Positions 5,801 to 50,250 of a stretch of DNA of 53,037 nt are shown here, one piece after another (position 1 is the stretch's first letter; each line of letters begins with the position of its first letter). Source of the stretch: a virus; the UHGV virus genome UHGV-0150124; one strand, given 5' to 3'. The notes under the pieces were generated by a model that worked only from the letters and a program-made list of their open reading frames with translations, did no database searches and was not told the DNA's origin. The position numbers were made by a program, and so were the translations under genes.

Positions 5801-7787
5801 TTTTGACTACAGCGCCAGTGGTGTTATATACGCGGATTTCAAAGGTCAGGCGACGGGTTGTCGTCTGTGTTTCCCACGTTGCGCGACACTGGACCGTTTC
5901 GGATCCAATGTTTATCACCTTCAGATTTTCAATGTTCGGCACGCGGAAGTGATTAAGCGTGTCGTTATTGATCTCGAAGATTGCACCATTATCAACTACA
6001 GCCTGTTTGTGTGGGTCGTGCTGTGCTGCCTCGATGGTGTATACGCTGTTATTTTCTGTTTCTGCTACGCTGGTGATTCGACATAAAACGGGTTTTGCTG
6101 CGTTGGTTGATACAGCAAAAACAGTGCCGTTACGAATCCATGCCGGGGCGTGTGCAAGGGTGATATTGTTCCCGTTAACTCCGGTGATCTGGTGTTTTTT
6201 AAATTTACCATCGCTATCGAGTAAGCTGATGGTGTCACCAGGGGCGATGTATTCAGAATCAACCTTATCGACAGTTATTACTCTTCCATTGTTGGCCACG
6301 ATACGACCGCCTAAACGAGCGCCTGCGCGGTTATTGTCGAGTATCTCGATAATATCACCTGGCGTAAAGTGAATCGCGTCACGGGCCATTTTAAACGTGA
6401 ATTTTGATGGTTCGCGTTTTGCTGTTTCTATCAGCCATTTTCCAGCGCGGTGCGCTTGCCCGCGTGAAGTGCAACCGAACGCCTCCAACGTGGTTTCGTT
6501 ATAACCATCACGGGCGATTAGTTTATCATCTGCGACATATTCTTTTGATTGCTCCCAGCCGTTTTCAGGGTCAGTCCAGGATACGATCACGGCGTTGTAG
6601 CATTCTGCGCGTGCGATACTTGAACGAGTAAATGCGCCATCAACGACGTTTGCATTTGTGATGGTGGCGATTGGATCTTGTGGCGCATCAATCATCACGG
6701 TAAGGCGTTGTCCATCCCATAACGCGATACCACGGAACATACCTGCGATGTTATCCAGTAGGTCGCGGGCGCTCATTTGCTCCGTAATGTAAGCGTTAAG
6801 CGTCATGCGAGGCTCAAGGCCACCATAGCCATCATCAACCAACTGATCGCAGTATTGAGAAAGCACGTACAAAGCGCCATCATCAACATCAATGTAACCA
6901 GCATGTCGAGCAAGCCCAAAGCGCTCGTTTTTAACCAGATACCGGAAAAGCCATGCAGGGTTATTGGTATACGCCTTTTTAAATCCACCAAGCCATAAAC
7001 CTGAATATGTGCGCGTTTCAGGATTGTAGTTGTCAGGCACATCAACAATCAGGCCACGAAGGTGATAGGTGCGGGTAGGCGTATCAGTATATTGATCGTG
7101 GTCAATTACTGCGCCAGCTACAGCGGTATGAGGATAAGACAGGTTATCGTCGATTATCTCGCTGTAACTGCTCCACCGCGTATCGTTCCGCAATAGATCG
7201 CTGTTGCTGTCTGCTGTCACGCGACGAACGCGAATATCAAACGGTTTTTCATCCGGTGCTTTAATGATGTGGGCTTCCAGATACTCACCGCTTTGTTTGC
7301 CGGGGCCAATTTGTATATCCTTAATCAGCGACCACGTAGAAGATGATGACGGTTTAACATCAACCATCAACATGACGGATGTATTATATTGATTGCCCTT
7401 TTCATCTGACTGAACGAGAGCATCAACGCCAAGATTCAACCTGACGCGGGTAACGTTTGGATCTGAAACAGTCCTGATTATTGGTGTGTCGTGAGTTACC
7501 TTTGCGTTGACAATAACGGTTGACTCAATGGCGTTAAAACCATTAATCGGCGATTGGTCAGTCGTGCCGTTGCGCCAGGCTATACTAATCCCCGGAATTG
7601 ATGTATTCCCGTTTGCGTCAGTAACAGGAGTGTCATTAAGCATCACGTCATTCAATGGCGCTTTCTGGTTTGCCGGACCGTATATCGGCCCTTCGCTGAG
7701 AATATCTAAAACACGATAAAACTGTTTGTGATACAGGTTATCGTTCAATAATGTTGGTGTTTTGGCTTTGCCGCCGCCGCTACTCAT
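2838..7787 (-). CDS. J: Host specificity / central tail fibre protein (lambda J-like) with a long repetitive coiled-coil insertion
   Basis: 1649 aa; N-terminal ~700 aa align by eye with lambda gpJ (e.g. WSSYSEIID...RTYHLRGLIVDVPDNYNPETRTYSGLW vs WSSYTEIID...RNYHLRGRILQVPSNYNPQTRQYSGIW); central ~36-aa repeats. Confidence 0.85.
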   Translation of the reverse strand: MSSGGGKAKTPTLLNDNLYHKQFYRVLDILSEGPIYGPANQKAPLNDVMLNDTPVTDANGNTSIPGISIAWRNGTTDQSPINGFNAIESTVIVNAKVTHDTPIIRTVSDPNVTRVRLNLGVDALVQSDEKGNQYNTSVMLMVDVKPSSSSTWSLIKDIQIGPGKQSGEYLEAHIIKAPDEKPFDIRVRRVTADSNSDLLRNDTRWSSYSEIIDDNLSYPHTAVAGAVIDHDQYTDTPTRTYHLRGLIVDVPDNYNPETRTYSGLWLGGFKKAYTNNPAWLFRYLVKNERFGLARHAGYIDVDDGALYVLSQYCDQLVDDGYGGLEPRMTLNAYITEQMSARDLLDNIAGMFRGIALWDGQRLTVMIDAPQDPIATITNANVVDGAFTRSSIARAECYNAVIVSWTDPENGWEQSKEYVADDKLIARDGYNETTLEAFGCTSRGQAHRAGKWLIETAKREPSKFTFKMARDAIHFTPGDIIEILDNNRAGARLGGRIVANNGRVITVDKVDSEYIAPGDTISLLDSDGKFKKHQITGVNGNNITLAHAPAWIRNGTVFAVSTNAAKPVLCRITSVAETENNSVYTIEAAQHDPHKQAVVDNGAIFEINNDTLNHFRVPNIENLKVINIGSETVQCRATWETQTTTRRLTFEIRVYNTTGAVVKSYETTNYSYDFYGIDSGIYSLGIRGRNDTGMKGAESIVDLVIGAPAAPVGVNWVPGVFQATVYPISRTTLTTDTSYEFYYSGETQITDPASVTTKAQYTGRGHQWTFGGMNTGHTYYVYVRTRNAFGVSDFVEASGKPTENFDEITDYVTKDVMNSKQFKEMVDDIKDLGDRTDLIESATNDLKTATDNLTEITDDLRTETDNLITETGSIKADTDTLKKETEDLYKKVKENADDIGQHESRIDSLEVSSEKVGSELAQAKASLQNASLALINNSLAQTNTRVTLTAQYKKGRTETKAEIDRIDNVIAEEKKATAESLETITAEMNTMDSNLKGQISSVERAVADEASARAEAINGVNASISNLDKKTDASVNRLDRAIADETSARTQAISDVNASISTLDKKTDASVSRLDKAISDETQARSDAITVVKADLTTLENNTNASVKRLDQAIADESSARAQAISGISASLDGVKSEVDKNSDEIDQAKASLQNASLALINNSMAQSKMSTIIEAKYRKGQTKTKAEIARVDTAIADESSARAEAISNVNANISTLESKTDASVKRLDQAIADESSARAEAISGVNASISTLDSKVTSNVTRMDKAIADEKNARTDAISSLNSSLTSTINSKVSEVSTALSTHETSSAEKFGQISASFDDVNSSITEWSQAMATADEALSTRIDQLKVTINGNTTAIETTSKALTDFKGNVDASYSIKIATDKNGMKYATGMSLGLTGSGTNVQSQCIFLVDRFVLMTAAGGSYQTPFYVTNGACYIRDAWIRDASITTAKIAQQIQSTNYKAGSAGWMLNKNGNAEFNNVTVRGTVYATSGKFTGEIQATSGKFKGTVEAKSFIGDVANMGVGPDRVLGHNGSYSATITYKDSTDNALTKSVMLMATISLMSGEYRSTYNVTFSCGDKNKTISYYVPYGGCTLTVQCAFSGLKASDIIGKIYCPQTSSSEGYAYCTALYSPTMIVARGTGSFITSTTA
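3900..5100 (-). repeat. Intragenic near-tandem ~108-bp repeats inside the J-like gene
   Basis: Near-identical DNA blocks, e.g. GCGCGTGCGCTTGATTCATCGGCGATAGCCTGATCCAGGCGCTTAACACTGGC at ~4071 and ~4435; encode repeated RLDxAIADE(S/T)SARAxAIS units. Confidence 0.6.
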
Positions 7788-40342: not shown

Positions 40343-40762
40343 CTAAAAAGGAATATCGTCGTCGAAGTCCATCGGAGGCGGATTATTCCCGTTATTATTC
40401 TGCTGCTGCGGCGGCGCTTTCTGCTGCTGTCCTTGCTGCTGGCCTTGTTGGTTAACATTCATGAATTCAAATTCATTAACCGCCACTTCTACCGCAGTCC
40501 CCTTCGTGCCGTCGTTCCGGTCATATTGCCGAACATCCAGGCGACCGCTTACCACTATTTTTCCACCCTTGCGGATATGTGGCGCTAATTTTTCCGCACG
40601 CTCACCAAATACCAGGCAAGTGATCCACATTGTCCGCTTGTTATCACCGTAGCCATTCGTTACAGCTAACGGAAAACTACCAATCGCTTTACCGTTTTGC
40701 GTGTAGCGAACTTCCATGTCGTTTCCGATATTCCCGCCCAGCGTAATTGAATTCAAACTCAT
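40343..40762 (-). CDS. ssb: Single-stranded DNA-binding protein
   Basis: 139 aa, OB-fold-like N-terminal region, Gln/Pro-rich linker, C-terminal acidic tip DFDDDIPF. Confidence 0.9.
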   Translation of the reverse strand: MSLNSITLGGNIGNDMEVRYTQNGKAIGSFPLAVTNGYGDNKRTMWITCLVFGERAEKLAPHIRKGGKIVVSGRLDVRQYDRNDGTKGTAVEVAVNEFEFMNVNQQGQQQGQQQKAPPQQQNNNGNNPPPMDFDDDIPF

Positions 40763-41406
40763 TAACCCATCTCCCCGTTAAGCTCTGCGACCCGGATGTC
40801 ATAAACATCTTTTGCCTTGATTCGATGTTCCGATCCTTCCGGTAGTAATTTCCAGCATTTGCCAAATATTTCACGCAGCTTGTTAGCGTCCTGCGCTTTC
40901 GCTGCTGCATCACAGAAACGTGCTAATACTTCATCAGGATTTGGCGGCGCTTTCTTCTGCTGCGGTTGTTGTTTTGGTGGGTTTTTCTGTTGTCGCGGCT
41001 GCTGGCCTGTCTGCTTCGCGTAAGCATCAGTATCAGGATCGCGAGCATCATCTATACAGAATAAACCGTTCAAAGCATATTTACGCGCGTAACTTGATGT
41101 TGCTCCTGTTAGCTGGCTGGCGTCCATACCCTTCTTGTTTTCTTCCTCCCTGGCATAAGCAGTTACCGCTATTACGTCTTCACCGTCGCTTAGCGTCGCC
41201 GTTGCTTTCACATAATAGCGATTGCCGATCAGGACAATTTCATCACTAACAGTCAGCGTGATATTTTGAAGCAGTGGTTTAACCGCCTCTAAAATATCCT
41301 CCGCCGACCTGTAATTATATCCACCAAAATTATTACGCTGATTTTTCGGCGCGTTCAGCGTTTGCTGAATCGTCCATAGCTTTTTATGTAACTCTGTTTT
41401 CACCAT
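40762..41406 (-). CDS. erf: Erf-family single-strand annealing protein
   Basis: LNAPKNQRNNFGGYNYRSAEDILEAVKPLL...DEIVLIGNRYYVKATATLSDGE...AREEENKKGMDASQLTGATSSYARKYALNGLF matches P22 Erf by eye. Confidence 0.85.
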   Translation of the reverse strand: MVKTELHKKLWTIQQTLNAPKNQRNNFGGYNYRSAEDILEAVKPLLQNITLTVSDEIVLIGNRYYVKATATLSDGEDVIAVTAYAREEENKKGMDASQLTGATSSYARKYALNGLFCIDDARDPDTDAYAKQTGQQPRQQKNPPKQQPQQKKAPPNPDEVLARFCDAAAKAQDANKLREIFGKCWKLLPEGSEHRIKAKDVYDIRVAELNGEMG

Positions 41407-41938: not shown

Positions 41939-42310
41939 CTTAACATCTTTCAACTAATCCCGCAATCATCGCCGTTCCCGGCGTGACCTTGCTCACTCCA
42001 AGCAAGCTGACTCGTCGCCTTGCGTGCGGTTTCGTGGGGGATGTAACGCTTTAAACACCCCATGCGCCTTGTTATCAGTGCCGCTTTCGGTCCCCCATCG
42101 GGGAGTTACTCCACGGTTGACAAGGTGTTAAGCCTGATTTTTAAAGTGCCAGGAAGTTGCTTTTGTTACCTGCGCCCTTCCTTTGACTCGCAATATACGC
42201 CCCGTAAAACATCGAGTCAATCCATTTTGTATACTTTTTTAAAATATTTTATATGCCATTGATATTTAAATAATAAATAACGTTTTCTGTTTACGTTTTG
42301 GTGTTTTCCA

Positions 42311-42337
42311 GGCAAAGAAAAGCCGCCATTCGGCGGC
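42311..42337 (-). terminator. Intrinsic terminator downstream of the repressor gene
   Basis: On minus strand: hairpin GCCGCC-GAAT-GGCGGC followed by TTTTCTTTG. Confidence 0.55.
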
Positions 42338-42343
42338 TAATGT

Positions 42344-42991
42344 TTATGGCAGGTTTACGATCTTCGCATCAACCACCACGCCTATAATTTTTGATTCTGG
42401 ATTCATAGGGATTGGCGGATACAGCGGATTGAGCGAACGTAAAAGCCTTTGACCTCCATCAATAATCAACTGTTTAAACGTCGGTATCTGCCCTTCCTCA
42501 AGCTGGGCTATAACCAGTTTGCCGTCAATAGCTGGCGCGTGCGGGTCCACAAGTATCATCGTCCCCGCCGGGATGCTCAACCCCTGCGGCGCGTTCATTG
42601 ATTCACCTTTGGCAACCAGCCAGTAACTGTCATCTGAACAAATAACGCTAGTCGTAACGTGTCGTAATGCTGAACGCCTTGCGTCATCCATATTGTTTAC
42701 TGTGTCCTTCCAGTCAATAACCGGGTAACTACCTAAATCACGCGGCGGCACGGCCTGAAGTGTATTAGAAACAGAATCATCAATGACCATGCCATCATGT
42801 GTAACAGTAAACTGCCGACGACCAAGCTCGCGCATAATCCGCGCAATATCTTCAAGATTTGGCTCTCGGCGACCGTTCAGCCAGTGTGACAGGCCGCCTT
42901 TAGTTATCCCCATACGATCCGCGAGCGAATCCTGGCTCATGCCCTGCGCCCGCATGAGCTGCTTTGCTAAGTCATACCATTTTGTTTTCAT
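42344..42991 (-). CDS. cI: cI-type repressor (HTH plus LexA/S24 autopeptidase domain)
   Basis: 215 aa; N-terminal HTH (QDSLADRMGITKGGLSHWLNG); C-terminal S24-like domain with GESM serine and downstream Lys. Confidence 0.85.
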   Translation of the reverse strand: MKTKWYDLAKQLMRAQGMSQDSLADRMGITKGGLSHWLNGRREPNLEDIARIMRELGRRQFTVTHDGMVIDDSVSNTLQAVPPRDLGSYPVIDWKDTVNNMDDARRSALRHVTTSVICSDDSYWLVAKGESMNAPQGLSIPAGTMILVDPHAPAIDGKLVIAQLEEGQIPTFKQLIIDGGQRLLRSLNPLYPPIPMNPESKIIGVVVDAKIVNLP

Positions 42992-43296
42992 GTCGCTACC
43001 CTATAACCTCAAAAAGTTTGATGCAAGTCACAAAACGTGTATTTTAAGCCTTGATCTTAAAATTCCATTTTGTAAACTTGCAGACAAGGTAAGGCCATAC
43101 TTGCAAAGACGCAAGGAAAAAGATAACGGAAGGCACAAAAAGGCACTTACCTTATGCTCTTTAAAAATCCGGTGTCGCTGCGAAGCGAAAAACAAATATC
43201 ACGCAACGGCGGGATCTGTTGAGCGGTCAGTCACTGCTATCTAATGCTAATGGGATGCCCGCCCGCGCGTTCACTCTAACCATAGGAGAAAATGCG
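42992..43296. promoter_or_regulatory. Immunity-region intergenic control region (candidate operators and rightward promoter)
   Basis: 305-bp gap with repeated CTTGCA / TGCAAG half-sites and palindrome CTTGCAAAGACGCAAG; no Cro-like ORF found. Confidence 0.4.
43153..43190 (+). promoter_or_regulatory. Candidate nutR (boxA-like TGCTCTTTAA plus boxB-like CGCU-GCGA-AGCG)
   Basis: Resembles the nutL candidate (CGCUG.GAAG core). Confidence 0.35.
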
Positions 43297-43554
43297 ATGA
43301 GTATAAACATGATTAGTAAAGCATGGAACGTAAAACTTAATAGCCCGACTCAAAAACTTGTCTTAATGGCTCTGGCTGAAAAGGCAGATAACAAAGGACG
43401 GGTACATGATGCATCACGCAAAGAAGTAGCCGCAATGTGTGAACTTCCTGTTCATACGGTACATGATGCCTTCGCCGCGTTAATGGATAAAGGATTTGTT
43501 TGTCGTCTTGATGCATTCAGTGATGTCTATGTAGTGATGTTGCCGGAGGGATGA
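43297..43554 (+). CDS. Winged-helix DNA-binding protein, first gene of the rightward operon
   Basis: Start at MSINMISKAWN after AGGAG; KLVLMALAEKADNKGRV...EVAAMCELPVHTVHDAFAALMDKGFV. Confidence 0.45.
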   Translation: MSINMISKAWNVKLNSPTQKLVLMALAEKADNKGRVHDASRKEVAAMCELPVHTVHDAFAALMDKGFVCRLDAFSDVYVVMLPEG

Positions 43555-43557
43555 TCT

Positions 43558-44604
43558 ATGAAGTGGTTTAAGCATGACAGCGATGCGAACCGCGATGAAA
43601 AACTTCAAAACGTTTTGTTAGATTATGGCCTGGAAGGGTACGGGCTTTATTGGTATTGCCTCGAACTAATAACTTATGACGTAGATCAGCACAATCTGAC
43701 TTTTGACCTACGACATGACGCGAGAATCATTGCTCGAAACGTCGGATCTACTGAAAAACGTATAGAAGAAATGATGAAATACTTCATCGAAATTGGTTTG
43801 TTTGAATGTTCTCAAGGCCACATAACTTGTTTAAAGTTATTGAAAAGGCTGGACCAATCAATGACTTCTAAAAGCGCTTACAGGGCCGCCATAAACACAG
43901 CGAAGGAACAATTAAAATTAGAAAAGTTAATCAATCCAACACAAAAAGGTCATGATAGGGTCATGACCGGGTCAGGAAAGGGTCATGAATTAGAAGTAGA
44001 AAAAGAAAGAGAAAAAGATATATACACTTCGTGTATTGTCGAAAATGAACAAAAAATGGTCAATCAGGATGGCGTAAACGAAGCGGCATTGCGTTGCCTT
44101 GCCTTCTACAACGACAAGGCAGGATGCAAATGTCGTGATGCTAAGCCATTCGTAGAACTACTGACAGAAACAAAAACATGTAAAGCGTATACGGAGAATG
44201 AGATCACGTTAGTAATTGAGTGGGCTTTAACCCAATGGCGTAGCCGTGGTGGAGTACCTAAGCCTATCAACATTTGCCGGGTAACTAGGTTTGATGGGTA
44301 TTTGGCTGATGCTGAACAATGGCGCAAGCTATCAGCCACTGTAAACGCTGCCGACGTGGTGGAAGCATTTAACAGCACGTTTGACGGCCTGTTACCACCT
44401 GCCGAACTGGATCGGGATCTTGAACGCAAGATCTATGCGTTCACTGACTACCTGAAAGACAAAAGCATTAACGGCTTTGTCGCCTACTTCGAAAAGTTCA
44501 AAAACACGGCTTCAGATTTTTACTTTGGCAATGGCTTCACTGCGACACTTGATTTTCTGCTTAAACCAAAAACGCTACGTGATACGCGCGCTGGCGTTCT
44601 TTGA
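43558..44604 (+). CDS. Phage replication initiation / replisome organiser protein
   Basis: 348 aa; N-terminus MKWFKHDSDANRDEKLQNVLLDYGLEGYGLYWYCLELI resembles the Lin1244-type replisome organiser N-domain (by eye). Confidence 0.55.
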   Translation: MKWFKHDSDANRDEKLQNVLLDYGLEGYGLYWYCLELITYDVDQHNLTFDLRHDARIIARNVGSTEKRIEEMMKYFIEIGLFECSQGHITCLKLLKRLDQSMTSKSAYRAAINTAKEQLKLEKLINPTQKGHDRVMTGSGKGHELEVEKEREKDIYTSCIVENEQKMVNQDGVNEAALRCLAFYNDKAGCKCRDAKPFVELLTETKTCKAYTENEITLVIEWALTQWRSRGGVPKPINICRVTRFDGYLADAEQWRKLSATVNAADVVEAFNSTFDGLLPPAELDRDLERKIYAFTDYLKDKSINGFVAYFEKFKNTASDFYFGNGFTATLDFLLKPKTLRDTRAGVL

Positions 44605-44989
44605 CCAATCACGATCCGCAAAAATCCAAAATTACCCACAAAACAACCTCACCAGCGAGCTAAATAGCATGTGGTGCTAACTTGCTTGCCTTTTTGCGAT
44701 TAGCTCGTTAGAGAGCGTTACAGAGAGGATTTTAAAATGGACGGTAAACGCATGTTCGCCCTGGCTTTCGCGATCGCGATGGCTATCGCTGTTAACGTCG
44801 CCTTGTTCGGCGGTTTGTATCTGCTAGTTAATCCATAACCTACCTACCAGTCTGTAAATCGAAAATTAGCCACCTGATAGCGCCTCTAGCGCAATAAGAC
44901 ACTGCAACCTGTAAACGGGTTACGCGGTGGGATTTTTGCGTTGTAGCTCGTCTGAGGCGTTATATAGAAAATTAATAAAGGAGGTATAT

Positions 44990-46045
44990 ATGATTGCTAC
45001 TTATCATATGAAACTCAATTGTAAGGACACGCAATTACTGTCTGTTAATAATCTGGTTTCTGAACTTGAAATTGATAGACTTAAATCATTTGTTAAATAC
45101 TCTGATCTTTACGGATTTGAGGAATACAAGGATTTTATTGTTGATGGCGATGATGTGTATATCACACCCATAACGTTTATTAGATTCGTTACACCTGGTA
45201 AATATAGACATTATGAATATAATGAAAAATGGGTTAAGCCAGTTATTGAATCTTGTGGATTAGTTGACTTGCAAGATATCTTTAATAAATATTCAAATAA
45301 CACCAAAAAAGATAGTCCTTATGCTTATAATTATATTTTATGGTGTAATAATTATGTTGAAACGAGTGATACTCCTGGGCGATGTTCTGTGTATGTGTCA
45401 AAAGAAGATGCTGAAAAGTACAAAAAATGGTTGTTCGTCACTCGCGGAGTATCAATAGAAAAACTATGGGTAAGGTTGTTCCATTCAAGCGATATTGCAG
45501 ATCCAGATGCGTTTTTAACTGAACACCTCAATAATGATGAGTTTACCATTGATTTAAATATTGAATATTTTATAGTTAAAACAAATTATGGGTATGAAAG
45601 ATATATTAGCGATAAGATGGCAGAAAAGTATCATGCATGGGGTGAAAATAAAGGTCTTAATAATAATTTTGAATGCGGGAATTATAACGACATAGAAAAC
45701 TTTATTGAATTAAAAAGCGATAAAAATGTAATTGAAGAAATAAAAAAGGAGTGCGACTCGAAATTATCAGAAATGAGAGATAATTGTAAAAATATGATTA
45801 GGAAGCGTTATGAACATGCTGGCTTAACTATGTATGAAAAACTAAAAGGAGTTAAATTAATAAGGCAATATCCTGTTGATGTTGCTGGCAATAAGTATTT
45901 TATTGATGGCTACGATCCTGTGAATAACGTTGCTGTAGAAATTGATGAGTCACATCACAAACGGCAAGTAAAAAGCGATGCGATAAGACAAAAACGCATT
46001 GAAGATTATTTGGGGTGCAAGTTTTTCCGTTGTGCTATATCCTAA
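44990..46045 (+). CDS. AT-rich moron: protein with C-terminal DUF559 / Vsr-like PD-(D/E)xK nuclease-type domain
   Basis: ATG at 44990 after AAGGAGG; visibly AT-rich; C-terminus LIRQYPVDVAGNKYFIDGYDPVNNVAVEIDESHHKRQVKSDAIRQKRIEDYLGCKFFRC fits the DUF559 pattern. Confidence 0.5.
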   Translation: MIATYHMKLNCKDTQLLSVNNLVSELEIDRLKSFVKYSDLYGFEEYKDFIVDGDDVYITPITFIRFVTPGKYRHYEYNEKWVKPVIESCGLVDLQDIFNKYSNNTKKDSPYAYNYILWCNNYVETSDTPGRCSVYVSKEDAEKYKKWLFVTRGVSIEKLWVRLFHSSDIADPDAFLTEHLNNDEFTIDLNIEYFIVKTNYGYERYISDKMAEKYHAWGENKGLNNNFECGNYNDIENFIELKSDKNVIEEIKKECDSKLSEMRDNCKNMIRKRYEHAGLTMYEKLKGVKLIRQYPVDVAGNKYFIDGYDPVNNVAVEIDESHHKRQVKSDAIRQKRIEDYLGCKFFRCAIS

Positions 46046-46222
46046 TGTATACAAATTGTAAACCGTAATGTATACGATTAGTTATTCATTAAGTGGTTAT
46101 TTCAATTTGCATAAGTTGTTGATTAACCCTACTGGCATTTTTTGACACCGTGAAATCCATGTTAATAAAAATTAGTTATTTATGAATAAATACTCATTCC
46201 GCGAACCGGGGGTAATAACGTT

Positions 46223-47341
46223 ATGTCACAAAGAAAGATCAGCGATGAGGAACTGATCGCCGAGTACAACAAGGGGAAAACTTACAAGCAAATAGCAGAA
46301 GAATATGGAATGGCAAAACGCAACGTCGAACGCCTGGGCGCACGGTTGGCGAAACGCGGTTTAATATCCACGCGTCGCGCGCCGGGCTTTGGCGTCAATG
46401 GTGAGTCATTGCTCGTCGATAAGGATGGCAATGTGATTATGCGCTGGATTAAAACAGCCCGTGATCGCGATGAAATGGAAAGGCTAATGCAAGCGGCTTG
46501 CGATGCTTTCACGGAAGACATGCCACGCGCGGAGGCCGTGCCAGTGCCGGAAATTGATTTCCAAAAAAGCCTGGCCCTTTATCCGGTATTCGATCTGCAT
46601 ATCGGGGCGCTTGCTCATAAAGCTGAATGCGGTGAGAGCTACGACACCGGGATCGCTGAGCGCGTGCTAAATGATTTCTTTGACTACGCGGTAGGCGCAG
46701 CGCCGATGTCTGAAAAAGCTGTATTGCTTCTCGGTGGGGATGTTCTTCACACTGATGGGCTGTTGCCAGTGACGCCATCAAGCAATCACGTTCTTGATTG
46801 CGATTCACGCTACGCAAAACTTGTTTATGTGGCGATCCGGTCAGTCCGCCGTGCTGTAGGAAAGATGTTGTTAAACCACAAAGAAATCGAAATCCAGGTA
46901 TTATCAGGTAATCACGATCAGTCGGGGATGATTTGGCTACGTGCTGCGCTGGCGGCTTTTTACGAAGATGAACCGCGCGTAACGGTTGACGTGTCACCTG
47001 CTATCGTACACCACACACAGTACGGCAAAACATTCCTTGCTTACCACCACGGACACACCATCAAAAAACCAGAAAATTTGTTGTCTGCCTGCGTCTCTGA
47101 CTGGCGGGAAGATTTCGGTAAGTCTGCGGCGGTTTATGCTCATTGCGGGCACTGGCACCACCAACGGTTGATTGAATCATCGTTAGGCGTTGTTGAGTAT
47201 CACGGCACGTTAGCGGGCAAAGACGCTTATTCAACGAATGGCGGCTGGCGGTCGCGGCGTCTGGCGGCGGTAATAATTTACAGTCCTGATCACGGGGAAA
47301 TCGGGCGCTTTGTTTATTACCCTGAATATTCCATTTTGTAA
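46223..47341 (+). CDS. HTH domain fused to a calcineurin-like metallophosphoesterase
   Basis: Ordered MPE motifs DLH, GGDVLHTDG, GNHD, HHGH, GHWHH; N-terminal HTH-like YKQIAEEYGMAKRNVERL. Confidence 0.6.
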   Translation: MSQRKISDEELIAEYNKGKTYKQIAEEYGMAKRNVERLGARLAKRGLISTRRAPGFGVNGESLLVDKDGNVIMRWIKTARDRDEMERLMQAACDAFTEDMPRAEAVPVPEIDFQKSLALYPVFDLHIGALAHKAECGESYDTGIAERVLNDFFDYAVGAAPMSEKAVLLLGGDVLHTDGLLPVTPSSNHVLDCDSRYAKLVYVAIRSVRRAVGKMLLNHKEIEIQVLSGNHDQSGMIWLRAALAAFYEDEPRVTVDVSPAIVHHTQYGKTFLAYHHGHTIKKPENLLSACVSDWREDFGKSAAVYAHCGHWHHQRLIESSLGVVEYHGTLAGKDAYSTNGGWRSRRLAAVIIYSPDHGEIGRFVYYPEYSIL

Positions 47342-47359: not shown

Positions 47360-48775
47360 ATGGATTCTGTTAACTCACTGCGACAAGAACGAGAGTCTGC
47401 TGTGATAGGCGGACTCCTGTTAGGCGGGCTTACACCTAACGCGCAAGACGTTCTTGCTACGCTCGATCCTGAAGTGTTCACGATCCCGCTTTATAAACGT
47501 GCGTTTGAAGTTATCCGGGCGCAAGCCAGAAACAGAAATCTTATCGACGCGTTATTGGTTGGCGATGAGATTGGCAATGAAAACTTTGTACCGCTAATGC
47601 AAACGGCACGATCGTGCCCTTCTGCTGCCAACCTGAAAGGATATGCGCAACTACTACAGGAAGAACACCAGCGTCGGCAAATGCTGGAACTAATGGAAGA
47701 CATTCGCTACAAGCTGGAAACAGGGACGCTTGAAGTCGTCAGGGAGACGATGAAAGATTTTGATTCCCGGTATTCAAAATTAAAGGTAACAAAAGATCAA
47801 ATTATCCCGGTGCTGTTGCGCGATGCGGTCCAGGAATACACGGAAGTGTTAAGTAAACGCATGGAGTGTGGCGTGAACTCTGACAACATCAAAACAGGGA
47901 TTGACCCACTCGACGAAATGTTAGGCGGCATTAACGCTACTGATCTGGTGCTTATCGCCGGACGCCCAGGGTCTGGTAAATCGGCGTTGGCGTTGGCAAT
48001 TGCCCGCGCGGCGGCTGAACGCCCATACCCTGGAGGCGAAGGTCAGCGGGTCGGCGTTTTGCTGTTCACGCTTGAAATGTCGCTCGATCAGATGACTGAA
48101 CGTGCTATCGCTGGCGCTGGGAACTTATCAACGGATTGCCTGCGTAATCCGGTAAAACTGGATGACGAAGGTTGGGCGCACGTCACCCAGGGAATGAGTG
48201 CCCTTGCCGATCTCGATGTGTGGATTGTTGACACATCGCAGTTAACGGTCGAGGAAATACGCGCCACCGTCGAACGGATGAAACAGGACCATCCTAACCT
48301 GGGGATGGTAATGATTGACTACATCGGGTTAATGAAGCTGGCTAAGGCCGAACGTCATGATCTCGCCGTAGGGCAATTGTCGTGGTCATTGAAAATGATG
48401 GCGAAAGAGTTGCGCGTGCCAGTGGCGGCGCTGGCGCAATTATCCCGCCGCGTTGAGGAACGACCGAACAAGCGCCCGAACAATTCTGATCTGCGTGATT
48501 CCGGTAATCTTGAGCAGGACGCAGACCGGATCATCATGGTCTACCGCGACGGCTACTACAACGAACAATCGGTTGCCCGCGAATATATGGAGATCATCGT
48601 TTCAAAAAACCGTCACGGGAAAACGGGGACTGTTTACCAGCGGTTTGACGATAACGGCAACATCATCCCATGCGACCAGGCCCGCGCGGCGTCCGCTTGC
48701 ATTCAGTCAATGCAACAACGTCCGGCGGCAAGTCGATTCTCCCCACGAAACAGCCAGAACAACGCATCTTTTTAA
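47360..48775 (+). CDS. DnaB-family replicative DNA helicase
   Basis: 471 aa; Walker A GRPGSGKS; DnaB-like LAQLSRRVE...RDSGNLEQDADRIIMVYRD. Confidence 0.85.
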   Translation: MDSVNSLRQERESAVIGGLLLGGLTPNAQDVLATLDPEVFTIPLYKRAFEVIRAQARNRNLIDALLVGDEIGNENFVPLMQTARSCPSAANLKGYAQLLQEEHQRRQMLELMEDIRYKLETGTLEVVRETMKDFDSRYSKLKVTKDQIIPVLLRDAVQEYTEVLSKRMECGVNSDNIKTGIDPLDEMLGGINATDLVLIAGRPGSGKSALALAIARAAAERPYPGGEGQRVGVLLFTLEMSLDQMTERAIAGAGNLSTDCLRNPVKLDDEGWAHVTQGMSALADLDVWIVDTSQLTVEEIRATVERMKQDHPNLGMVMIDYIGLMKLAKAERHDLAVGQLSWSLKMMAKELRVPVAALAQLSRRVEERPNKRPNNSDLRDSGNLEQDADRIIMVYRDGYYNEQSVAREYMEIIVSKNRHGKTGTVYQRFDDNGNIIPCDQARAASACIQSMQQRPAASRFSPRNSQNNASF

Positions 48776-48854
48776 TTAACTTGAGCAAACGGCTTACCGG
48801 AAAGTTGACCGCTTTCTGGTGGCTGTTTTCGCGCTTAAAACGAGGCGAAAAACA

Positions 48855-49624: not shown

Positions 49625-49822
49625 ATGAATAAGGAGTTAGATTTAACCATTGAAGACTTTAGCACTATTGCGGAATACATGCACGGTGACGATCCTGATA
49701 AACCTGTTGTGGTTGATATGAGATACTTAAAAAGCGCTTTCATGACAAGCTCACGTCTAATTTCTTTGCAGGCGATCATGTATGCGCGGGCGCAGTGGAA
49801 AAACAGTAACGGTGTATTATGA
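49625..49822 (+). CDS. Hypothetical protein
   Basis: 65-aa ORF. Confidence 0.35.
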   Translation: MNKELDLTIEDFSTIAEYMHGDDPDKPVVVDMRYLKSAFMTSSRLISLQAIMYARAQWKNSNGVL

Positions 49823-50250
49823 GGCAAATTAGATTTGAAATAGTAAACGACGCCGTAAAAGAAAACGCTATCAGGCAGATAAGAGAGATCCAGCCTGATA
49901 GCAAAAGCCCGCTGATAATTACCATCCAGGAGAAAACCCGCTCGCTAAGCCAAAATAGCCTTCTATGGGCGTTGCTAACCGACATTAGTGATCAGGTTAA
50001 TTGGTACGGTAAGAAGCTGTCGCCGGAAGACTGGAAAGCGGTATTCACCGCCGGGCTTAAAAAATATGGCGTCGTGCCTAATCTGGATAAATCCGGCTTC
50101 GTTGTATTGGGAACATCTACAAGTCGAATGAGTAAATCAGAATTCAGTGAACTAATCGAATTAATTTACTCGTTCGGTGCTGAACATGATGTTCAATGGT
50201 CGGGTGATACGAAATTAAACGAGGAATTCATAAAACGCTGGGGGCAATAA
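49819..50250 (+). CDS. ninB: NinB (Orf-family) recombination protein
   Basis: TIQEKTRSLSQNSLLWALLTDIS...GFVVLGTSTSRMSKSEFSELIELIYSFGAEH matches lambda NinB by eye. Confidence 0.8.
   Translation: MRQIRFEIVNDAVKENAIRQIREIQPDSKSPLIITIQEKTRSLSQNSLLWALLTDISDQVNWYGKKLSPEDWKAVFTAGLKKYGVVPNLDKSGFVVLGTSTSRMSKSEFSELIELIYSFGAEHDVQWSGDTKLNEEFIKRWGQ

Follow-up and report, generated by a model that had tools for sequence, protein, structure and literature searches.

The window analysed here, the whole stretch of 53,037 nucleotides of the UHGV virus genome UHGV-0150124, encodes a 372-residue protein (46223..47341, + strand, ATG start) in which an N-terminal helix-turn-helix (HTH) precedes a metallophosphoesterase (MPE) core with an intact active site. 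The gene, an orthologue of T1 gp16, Bas01_0050 and mEp021 gp11, belongs as an unexceptional member to a phage family that is very large and has already been catalogued. On balance, and with moderate confidence, we favour the view that its product is a stand-alone, HTH-tethered binuclear-metal nuclease that acts on DNA in an accessory function.

Family membership and protein architecture

The open reading frame matches PHROG 704 ("DNA repair exonuclease") with E=8.7e-137, residues 4-368 aligning to profile positions 2-387 of 390, and a GGGGG Shine-Dalgarno-like site can be read from the sequence 11 nt before the ATG (46208..46212, +). PHROG 704 corresponds to pVOG VOG9929, and its members are annotated as either 'DNA repair exonuclease' or 'putative phosphoesterase'; the former name seems to derive from homology. 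The window is an mEp021-like prophage that adjoins dgcM. An identical coding sequence is annotated for E. coli M15 in RefSeq under the name "hypothetical protein", and a 92%-identical copy is called "metallophosphoesterase family protein" there. The MPE gene was present in 35 of 5,426 complete E. coli genomes, every time as a single chromosomal copy.

An exhaustive HMMER search against clusters of 50% identity returned 4,303 with E<=1e-3, of which 922 reached E<=1e-30, and tblastn found relatives in 2,045 phage records, which include Drexlerviridae, Dhillonvirus, Jerseyvirus, Macdonaldcampvirus, Casjensviridae, Vibrio phages and others. The closest relatives are those of MagusPhagus (96% identity), of mEp554, mEp013, mEp044 and mEp010 (91-95%), of mEp515 (89%) and of mEp021 (88%). 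These mEp relatives are Nus-dependent non-lambdoid "mEpimmI" temperate coliphages, and the paper that describes their genomes does not discuss the MPE gene (PMC11893012). Over the full length, the window protein is 56% identical to T1 gp16, also named ST16, and 52% identical to Bas01_0050 of BASEL phage Bas1, and it shares with both of them and with mEp021 gp11 the same HTH, linker and MPE architecture as well as the same invariant residues. T1-like MPEs are also encoded in ~47-50-kb records labelled as Campylobacter or Streptococcus phages (among them MG065641 and similar records, such as 'Campylobacter phage A14a', and P0060 'Streptococcus phage MBBL140'); they are 64-67% identical to the query, like those of coliphage Drexlerviridae, and the host labels look doubtful. 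A biochemical characterisation of any family member was not found in the literature.

The MPE catalytic core comprises residues about 114-365 (46562..47317, +), and its conservation was assessed in an alignment of 107 representatives with 29-56% identity to the query. Motif I (D124-x-H126; 46592..46600, +), of which both ligands are present in 107/107 representatives, aligns to SDWHLG of T. maritima Mre11. Motif II (G172-D173-V-L-H176, conforming to GDxxH; 46736..46750, +) aligns to GDLLH of the same protein and has D173 in 107/107 and H176 in 104/107. The next two motifs are equally well kept, as N230 and H231 of motif III (G229-N230-H231-D232; 46907..46918, +) are found in all 107 sequences and H276 and G277 of motif IV (H275-H276-G277-H278; 47045..47056, +) are invariant. 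Finally, motifs V/VI (G309-H310-W-H312; 47147..47158, +) align to GHIH of T. maritima Mre11; H312 is present in 107/107, and position 310 carries H in 101 sequences and D in the remaining 6. The metal-ligand set accordingly reads D124, H126, D173, N230, H276, H310 and H312, and all seven canonical ligands are kept in 101 of the 107 representatives. H231 stands at the usual position of the catalytic histidine of GNHD. The active site is thus intact and under strong purifying selection, and the full ordered MPE motif set that had been described from the sequence alone is confirmed, with each of its residues invariant or nearly so.

The structure was modelled twice with AF2. A first model, based on 37 close homologues, had a pLDDT of 82 and left both conserved loops at low confidence. 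The second, based on the 107-sequence alignment, reached a mean pLDDT of 94.3 and consists of the HTH, a beta-hairpin/helix and the MPE core to about residue 365, the core having the alpha/beta-sandwich MPE fold of the calcineurin-like superfamily and not an AAA+ or lambda-P-like loader fold. One conserved, family-specific loop (residues 176-196; 46748..46810, +) carries H176, D178, T184, P185, D192, D194 and R196 as conserved residues; it was of low confidence with the shallow alignment and reached pLDDT 96-98 with the deep one. It may be a substrate-binding element. With the Pfam Metallophos models the window protein gave no match at E<=0.1 and did not reach the gathering scores of PF00149 and PF12850, and among the 107 relatives only 21 matched PF00149 and 18 PF12850 at E<=0.01. 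Because the family is too divergent for these models, its membership in the calcineurin-like superfamily rests on the fold and on the ordered motifs DxH, GD, GNH[DE], H and GHxH, all of which are present.

The N-terminal HTH has three helices within residues 8-44 (46244..46354, +), which the AF2 model places at 8-16, 21-27 and 32-44 with pLDDT 92-95. For the window protein alone the Pfam HTH matches were sub-threshold (HTH_28, Rrf2 and Sigma70_r4_2, E about 0.02). In many relatives the HTH matches are significant, with E-values of 1.5e-9 for Sigma70_r4_2 and 2.4e-8 for GerE among the examples, and the family profile matched GerE (1fse) in the PDB with E=0.0085. In 107/107 representatives an N-terminal extension of 99-211 residues precedes the core. 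The HTH is followed by a family-specific linker (residues 56-98; 46388..46516, +), predicted to form a long beta-hairpin (strands 56-65 and 71-80) and a helix (82-98), in which G69 is conserved in 103/107 and W75 in 102/107 sequences. The combination of HTH and MPE that the sequence-only reading had proposed therefore stands, far beyond chance, with the HTH recognised through the AF2 model and the Pfam matches of relatives. In some database entries, close relatives go under 'Rrf2 family transcriptional regulator' or 'winged helix-turn-helix domain-containing protein', labels that stem from the small N-terminal HTH and disregard the MPE core.

Similarity to nucleases and alternative activities

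When the family profile of the MPE domain was compared with the PDB, the best matches were to T. maritima Mre11/SbcD, at a sub-threshold E of 0.06 for the best of them, and weaker, likewise sub-threshold matches were to a P. putida MPE nuclease. The sole other match (protoporphyrinogen oxidase, E 0.81) is unrelated and at chance level, and a PDB search with the single sequence gave chance-level matches only. In the Mre11/SbcD alignment motifs I, II (GDxxH), III and V are collinear. The histidine of Mre11 GDL[LF]H, which matters for exonuclease activity, aligns with H176 of the window protein. However, the identity to Mre11/SbcD is only 15-18%, and the capping domain that is C-terminal in Mre11/SbcD is lacking in the window protein, which ends with the MPE core and has an N-terminal HTH instead. 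In Mre11/SbcD it is this capping domain, together with the ATPase partner, that defines DNA recognition. We found no Rad50/SbcC partner among the ORFs at 42.3-51.1 kb, and none is annotated near the orthologues in eight other phage contexts.

PdeM endonuclease (TIGR04123) was the only specific NCBIfam match among the relatives (4/20, best E 9e-5); for the window MPE protein itself, searches against NCBIfam and PADLOC returned nothing. PdeM, the Lhr-ligase-associated DNA damage response endonuclease to which the P. putida MPE nuclease (PDB 6nvo) belongs, is a small DNA-cutting MPE that likewise stands alone, but the window protein is unmatched by TIGR04123 and its context is a phage replication module rather than an Lhr-ligase operon. 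Archaeal PolD DP1, a 3'-5' proofreading exonuclease, is 14% identical; its OB-fold is not seen in the window-protein model, and the genes of the replication region include no DP2-like polymerase partner. Other relatives are automatically named 'DNA polymerase II small subunit' in databases. A reading as polymerase B-subunit was rejected since the HTH, beta-hairpin and helix precede the core, an OB-fold is lacking and no polymerase is encoded nearby. The PUA-Cal-HAD MPE is a different, host-encoded MPE. By structure and sequence together, the nearest known relatives of the window protein are DNA nucleases, by small margins over generic phosphodiesterases. Among the three activities that the sequence-only reading had offered, an Mre11/SbcD-like nuclease is the best supported, through the PdeM matches in relatives and through PDB matches that stay below threshold.

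In the nuclease activity that we favour, the HTH would anchor the protein to DNA, and phosphodiester bonds of nucleic acid would be hydrolysed at the metal centre. The enzyme would be an exo- or endonuclease of the Mre11/SbcD/DP1 kind that works with neither a Rad50/SbcC-type ATPase nor a capping domain, and the family-specific conserved loops 176-196 and 333-346 would probably take over substrate recognition. Its role would lie in accessory DNA metabolism, dispensable for growth, and would not be that of a DnaB loader. What we infer for this protein is thus that it acts on DNA, that its chemistry is that of a nuclease and that the HTH tethers it.

Phenotypic data are available for an orthologue. 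In Bas1 mutants that escape the defence system DRT7, Bas01_0050 is altered by missense or frameshift mutations; this dispensable gene is toxic in E. coli when expressed, and its product was termed a putative nucleic-acid-targeting phosphoesterase by the authors. The lambda escapers of the same DRT7/UG10 study had lost gam (bioRxiv 10.64898/2026.02.16.706125). Both the toxicity and the link to DRT7 were seen with a 52%-identical orthologue from a virulent phage and may not be transferable to the window prophage gene, and the toxicity of Bas01_0050 could also come from non-nuclease activities.

These data bear on the possibility that the protein is a small-nucleotide phosphodiesterase, the signalling option of the first reading. 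Such an enzyme would cleave cyclic mono- or oligonucleotides or dinucleoside polyphosphates, its HTH would serve regulation or localisation, and it could possibly act in counter-defence by destroying immune second messengers. We regard this as unlikely. Loss of the orthologue gives escape from a defence rather than sensitisation, and the orthologue by itself is already toxic. Furthermore, a soluble messenger hydrolase would not be expected to have a DNA-binding HTH, and yet all 107 representatives have the N-terminal extension and many of them match HTH models significantly. The best sequence-level neighbours are nucleases, and PADLOC gave no match.

With a lower probability still, the protein could be a nucleic-acid end-healing phosphoesterase, that is, a 2',3'-cyclic phosphodiesterase or 3'-phosphatase that repairs ends left by ribotoxins or nucleases of the host. 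An MPE fold would allow this chemistry, and the bacterial Pnkp, which has an MPE domain, is comparable. In agreement with this possibility, a polynucleotide kinase/phosphatase gene (HAD_PNKP) directly follows the orthologue in Webervirus-like phages, including SmellyBerry.

We consider it improbable that the protein is foremost a transcription factor, which would use its HTH on phage or host promoters and its MPE domain as sensor or effector. The HTH does resemble those of sigma-70 region 4, LuxR/GerE and LysR-type proteins, several virulent phages have the gene immediately ahead of late, lysis or packaging genes, and the regulator names that some databases give to close relatives point in the same direction. 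Nevertheless, the invariance of the metal ligands and of H231 argues for catalysis, the orthologue is dispensable according to the preprint, and no conserved operator-like repeats were found with the gene.

Genomic context and the helicase-loader question

Reading rightward in the window, with all genes on the + strand, the gene order is a small HTH protein (43219-43554), a replication initiator of the Lin1244_N type (43558..44604; Pfam PF14297 E=6e-11 and PHROG initiator matches), a variable slot, the MPE gene, a DnaB-family replicative helicase that starts 18 nt after it (47360..48775; DnaB_C E=2.9e-76 and DnaB N-terminal domain E=6.6e-12 in Pfam) and a terminator-like hairpin (48794..48822, +), the last being a consensus match from a terminator scan only. 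The MPE gene and the replication genes are read in one direction and probably form a common transcript. Within the initiator ORF, three overlapping copies of a 19-nt repeat (repeat family D1) at 43948-43988 amount to about four iterons resembling GGGTCATGA with 11-bp spacing. They probably form the origin of phage replication, much like the lambda ori, which is located inside gene O.

In the window, the slot between initiator and MPE gene is filled by a 372-aa ORF of low GC content (44927..46045, +; GC 0.38) with a DUF559/Vsr-like endonuclease domain in its C-terminal part (Pfam DUF559 E=2e-4), for which PADLOC reported a match to methyl-directed REase II (mREase_II, E=1.4e-8). Related prophages and phages have a zinc-ribbon protein, a pRha-like protein or tiny ORFs in this slot, and the DUF559/Vsr-like ORF could be a moron, a defence gene or a homing-type insertion. 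The MPE gene had been placed between replication initiator and helicase. This is correct for DnaB, 18 nt downstream, but the initiator is not adjacent, as the DUF559 ORF intervenes. Alongside the putative nuclease, the prophage has recombination functions of its own, with Erf and SSB on the leftward arm (40343-41406, -) and NinB on the rightward arm (49819-50250, +).

To compare genomic contexts, we sampled annotated phage records, in the case of Dhillonvirus, Jerseyvirus and Casjensviridae as stretches of about 11-13 kb each. The order MPE, (HNH), DnaB recurs in the mEp021-like phage group. In this temperate group, which includes the window, the gene lies in the replication module before dnaB, whereas PHROG 704 members elsewhere lie by lysis, terminase or tail genes. 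In T1, Bas01 and herni the orthologue precedes the lysis cassette; Dhillonvirus has it between the lysis genes and terS, and in RcPescado it follows the lysis genes. A Vibrio phage carries it amid genes for lysis and head, and in Jerseyvirus it belongs to the tail region. A DnaB-family helicase is annotated neither in the complete T1 and Bas01 records nor in the examined stretches of the other groups, and no conserved partner gene was found in eight different phage contexts. The position beside DnaB is specific to the temperate mEp021-like lineage. Moreover, a related prophage combines an MPE allele of 60% identity with a DnaB of 95% identity, which means that the MPE gene is exchanged independently of DnaB.

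HNH endonuclease genes were repeatedly found directly downstream of the MPE orthologue in unrelated phages. Examples are those at 6121-6624 in mEp021 (L007), at 42028-42510 in T1 (L015), and at 7118-7645, 6181-6690 and 6171-6671 in three further records (L012, L009 and L010, respectively). In mEp021-like prophages these HNH genes stand between the MPE gene and dnaB. Split or truncated MPE ORFs occur in some phages. The HNH genes may represent homing-endonuclease traffic around the MPE gene.

The sequence-only reading had taken the slot next to dnaB as that of a helicase loader. A DnaB loader or replisome adaptor would indeed account for a gene between initiator and DnaB, and MPE-fold B-subunits are known to bridge polymerases and helicases in archaea and eukaryotes. 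However, full-length orthologues with 52-66% identity occur by lysis, terminase or tail genes in T1-like phages without an annotated DnaB and in stretches of about 11-13 kb from Dhillonvirus, Jerseyvirus and Casjensviridae that likewise show none, and the 60%-identical allele beside the 95%-identical DnaB shows no co-variation. HNH genes are inserted between the MPE gene and dnaB, and the catalytic site is invariant, unlike that of the eukaryotic B-subunits, which are inactive. In addition, there was no Pfam, PHROG or NCBIfam match to a loader (DnaC/IstB AAA+, lambda P or DciA), and the fold is that of an MPE. The helicase loader was therefore rejected, and with it the slot as a clue to function; we consider such a role, or that of an adaptor, very improbable.

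The initiators of two related prophages (window 43558-44604 and L012 3550-4614) have unrelated N-terminal halves, Lin1244_N versus HTH_36, and a C-terminal half (residues about 153-344) that is 37% identical; these are the prophages that combine 60% identity of the MPE with 95% identity of DnaB. This conserved C-terminal half is a candidate DnaB recruiter, and a likelier one than the MPE gene.

Least probable of all, and rejected, is the suggestion that a DNA-binding domain is joined here to a Ser/Thr/Tyr protein phosphatase like NinI/lambda-PP: lambda NinI (PP-lambda) and other PPP phosphatases belong to the same superfamily and are also phage-borne, lambdoid phages carry ninI in their nin region and the window has ninB nearby, but the window protein has neither the PPP signatures (GDxHG, GDxVDRG and GNHE) nor the PPP fold.

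Implications for the phage family

A wider hypothesis, which we put forward as a speculation and hold to be unlikely, is that the T1 gp16-like HTH-MPEs form a nuclease class of their own in phages, new, stand-alone and DNA-tethered, with DNA ends or host DNA as the object of remodelling. Reverse-transcriptase defences such as DRT7 could perceive this activity, as they could the interference of lambda Gam with RecBCD. The mEp021-like lineage might have recruited such a nuclease into its replication module to work with initiator and DnaB, for example on origin or rolling-circle intermediates. We give no weight here to gene '2.5', which classical T1 genetics reportedly assigned to host DNA degradation. 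Our literature search yielded no characterised HTH-MPE phage nuclease, no T1 host-DNA-degradation genetics and no escape-mutant link beyond the DRT7 preprint.

For the window, our analysis mainly corrects an expectation, as what precedes dnaB is no helicase-loader gene. For the family, which is very large, includes T1 and bears a homology-derived name while being biochemically uncharacterised, the preprint now connects an orthologue with toxicity to the host and with sensitivity of the phage to DRT7, a reverse-transcriptase defence. Once its substrate is defined, an accessory function that is widespread in phages would be explained, and possibly also what triggers a defence. The main value of the finding thus lies in the enzymology of this family and in its connection to DRT7 sensing.
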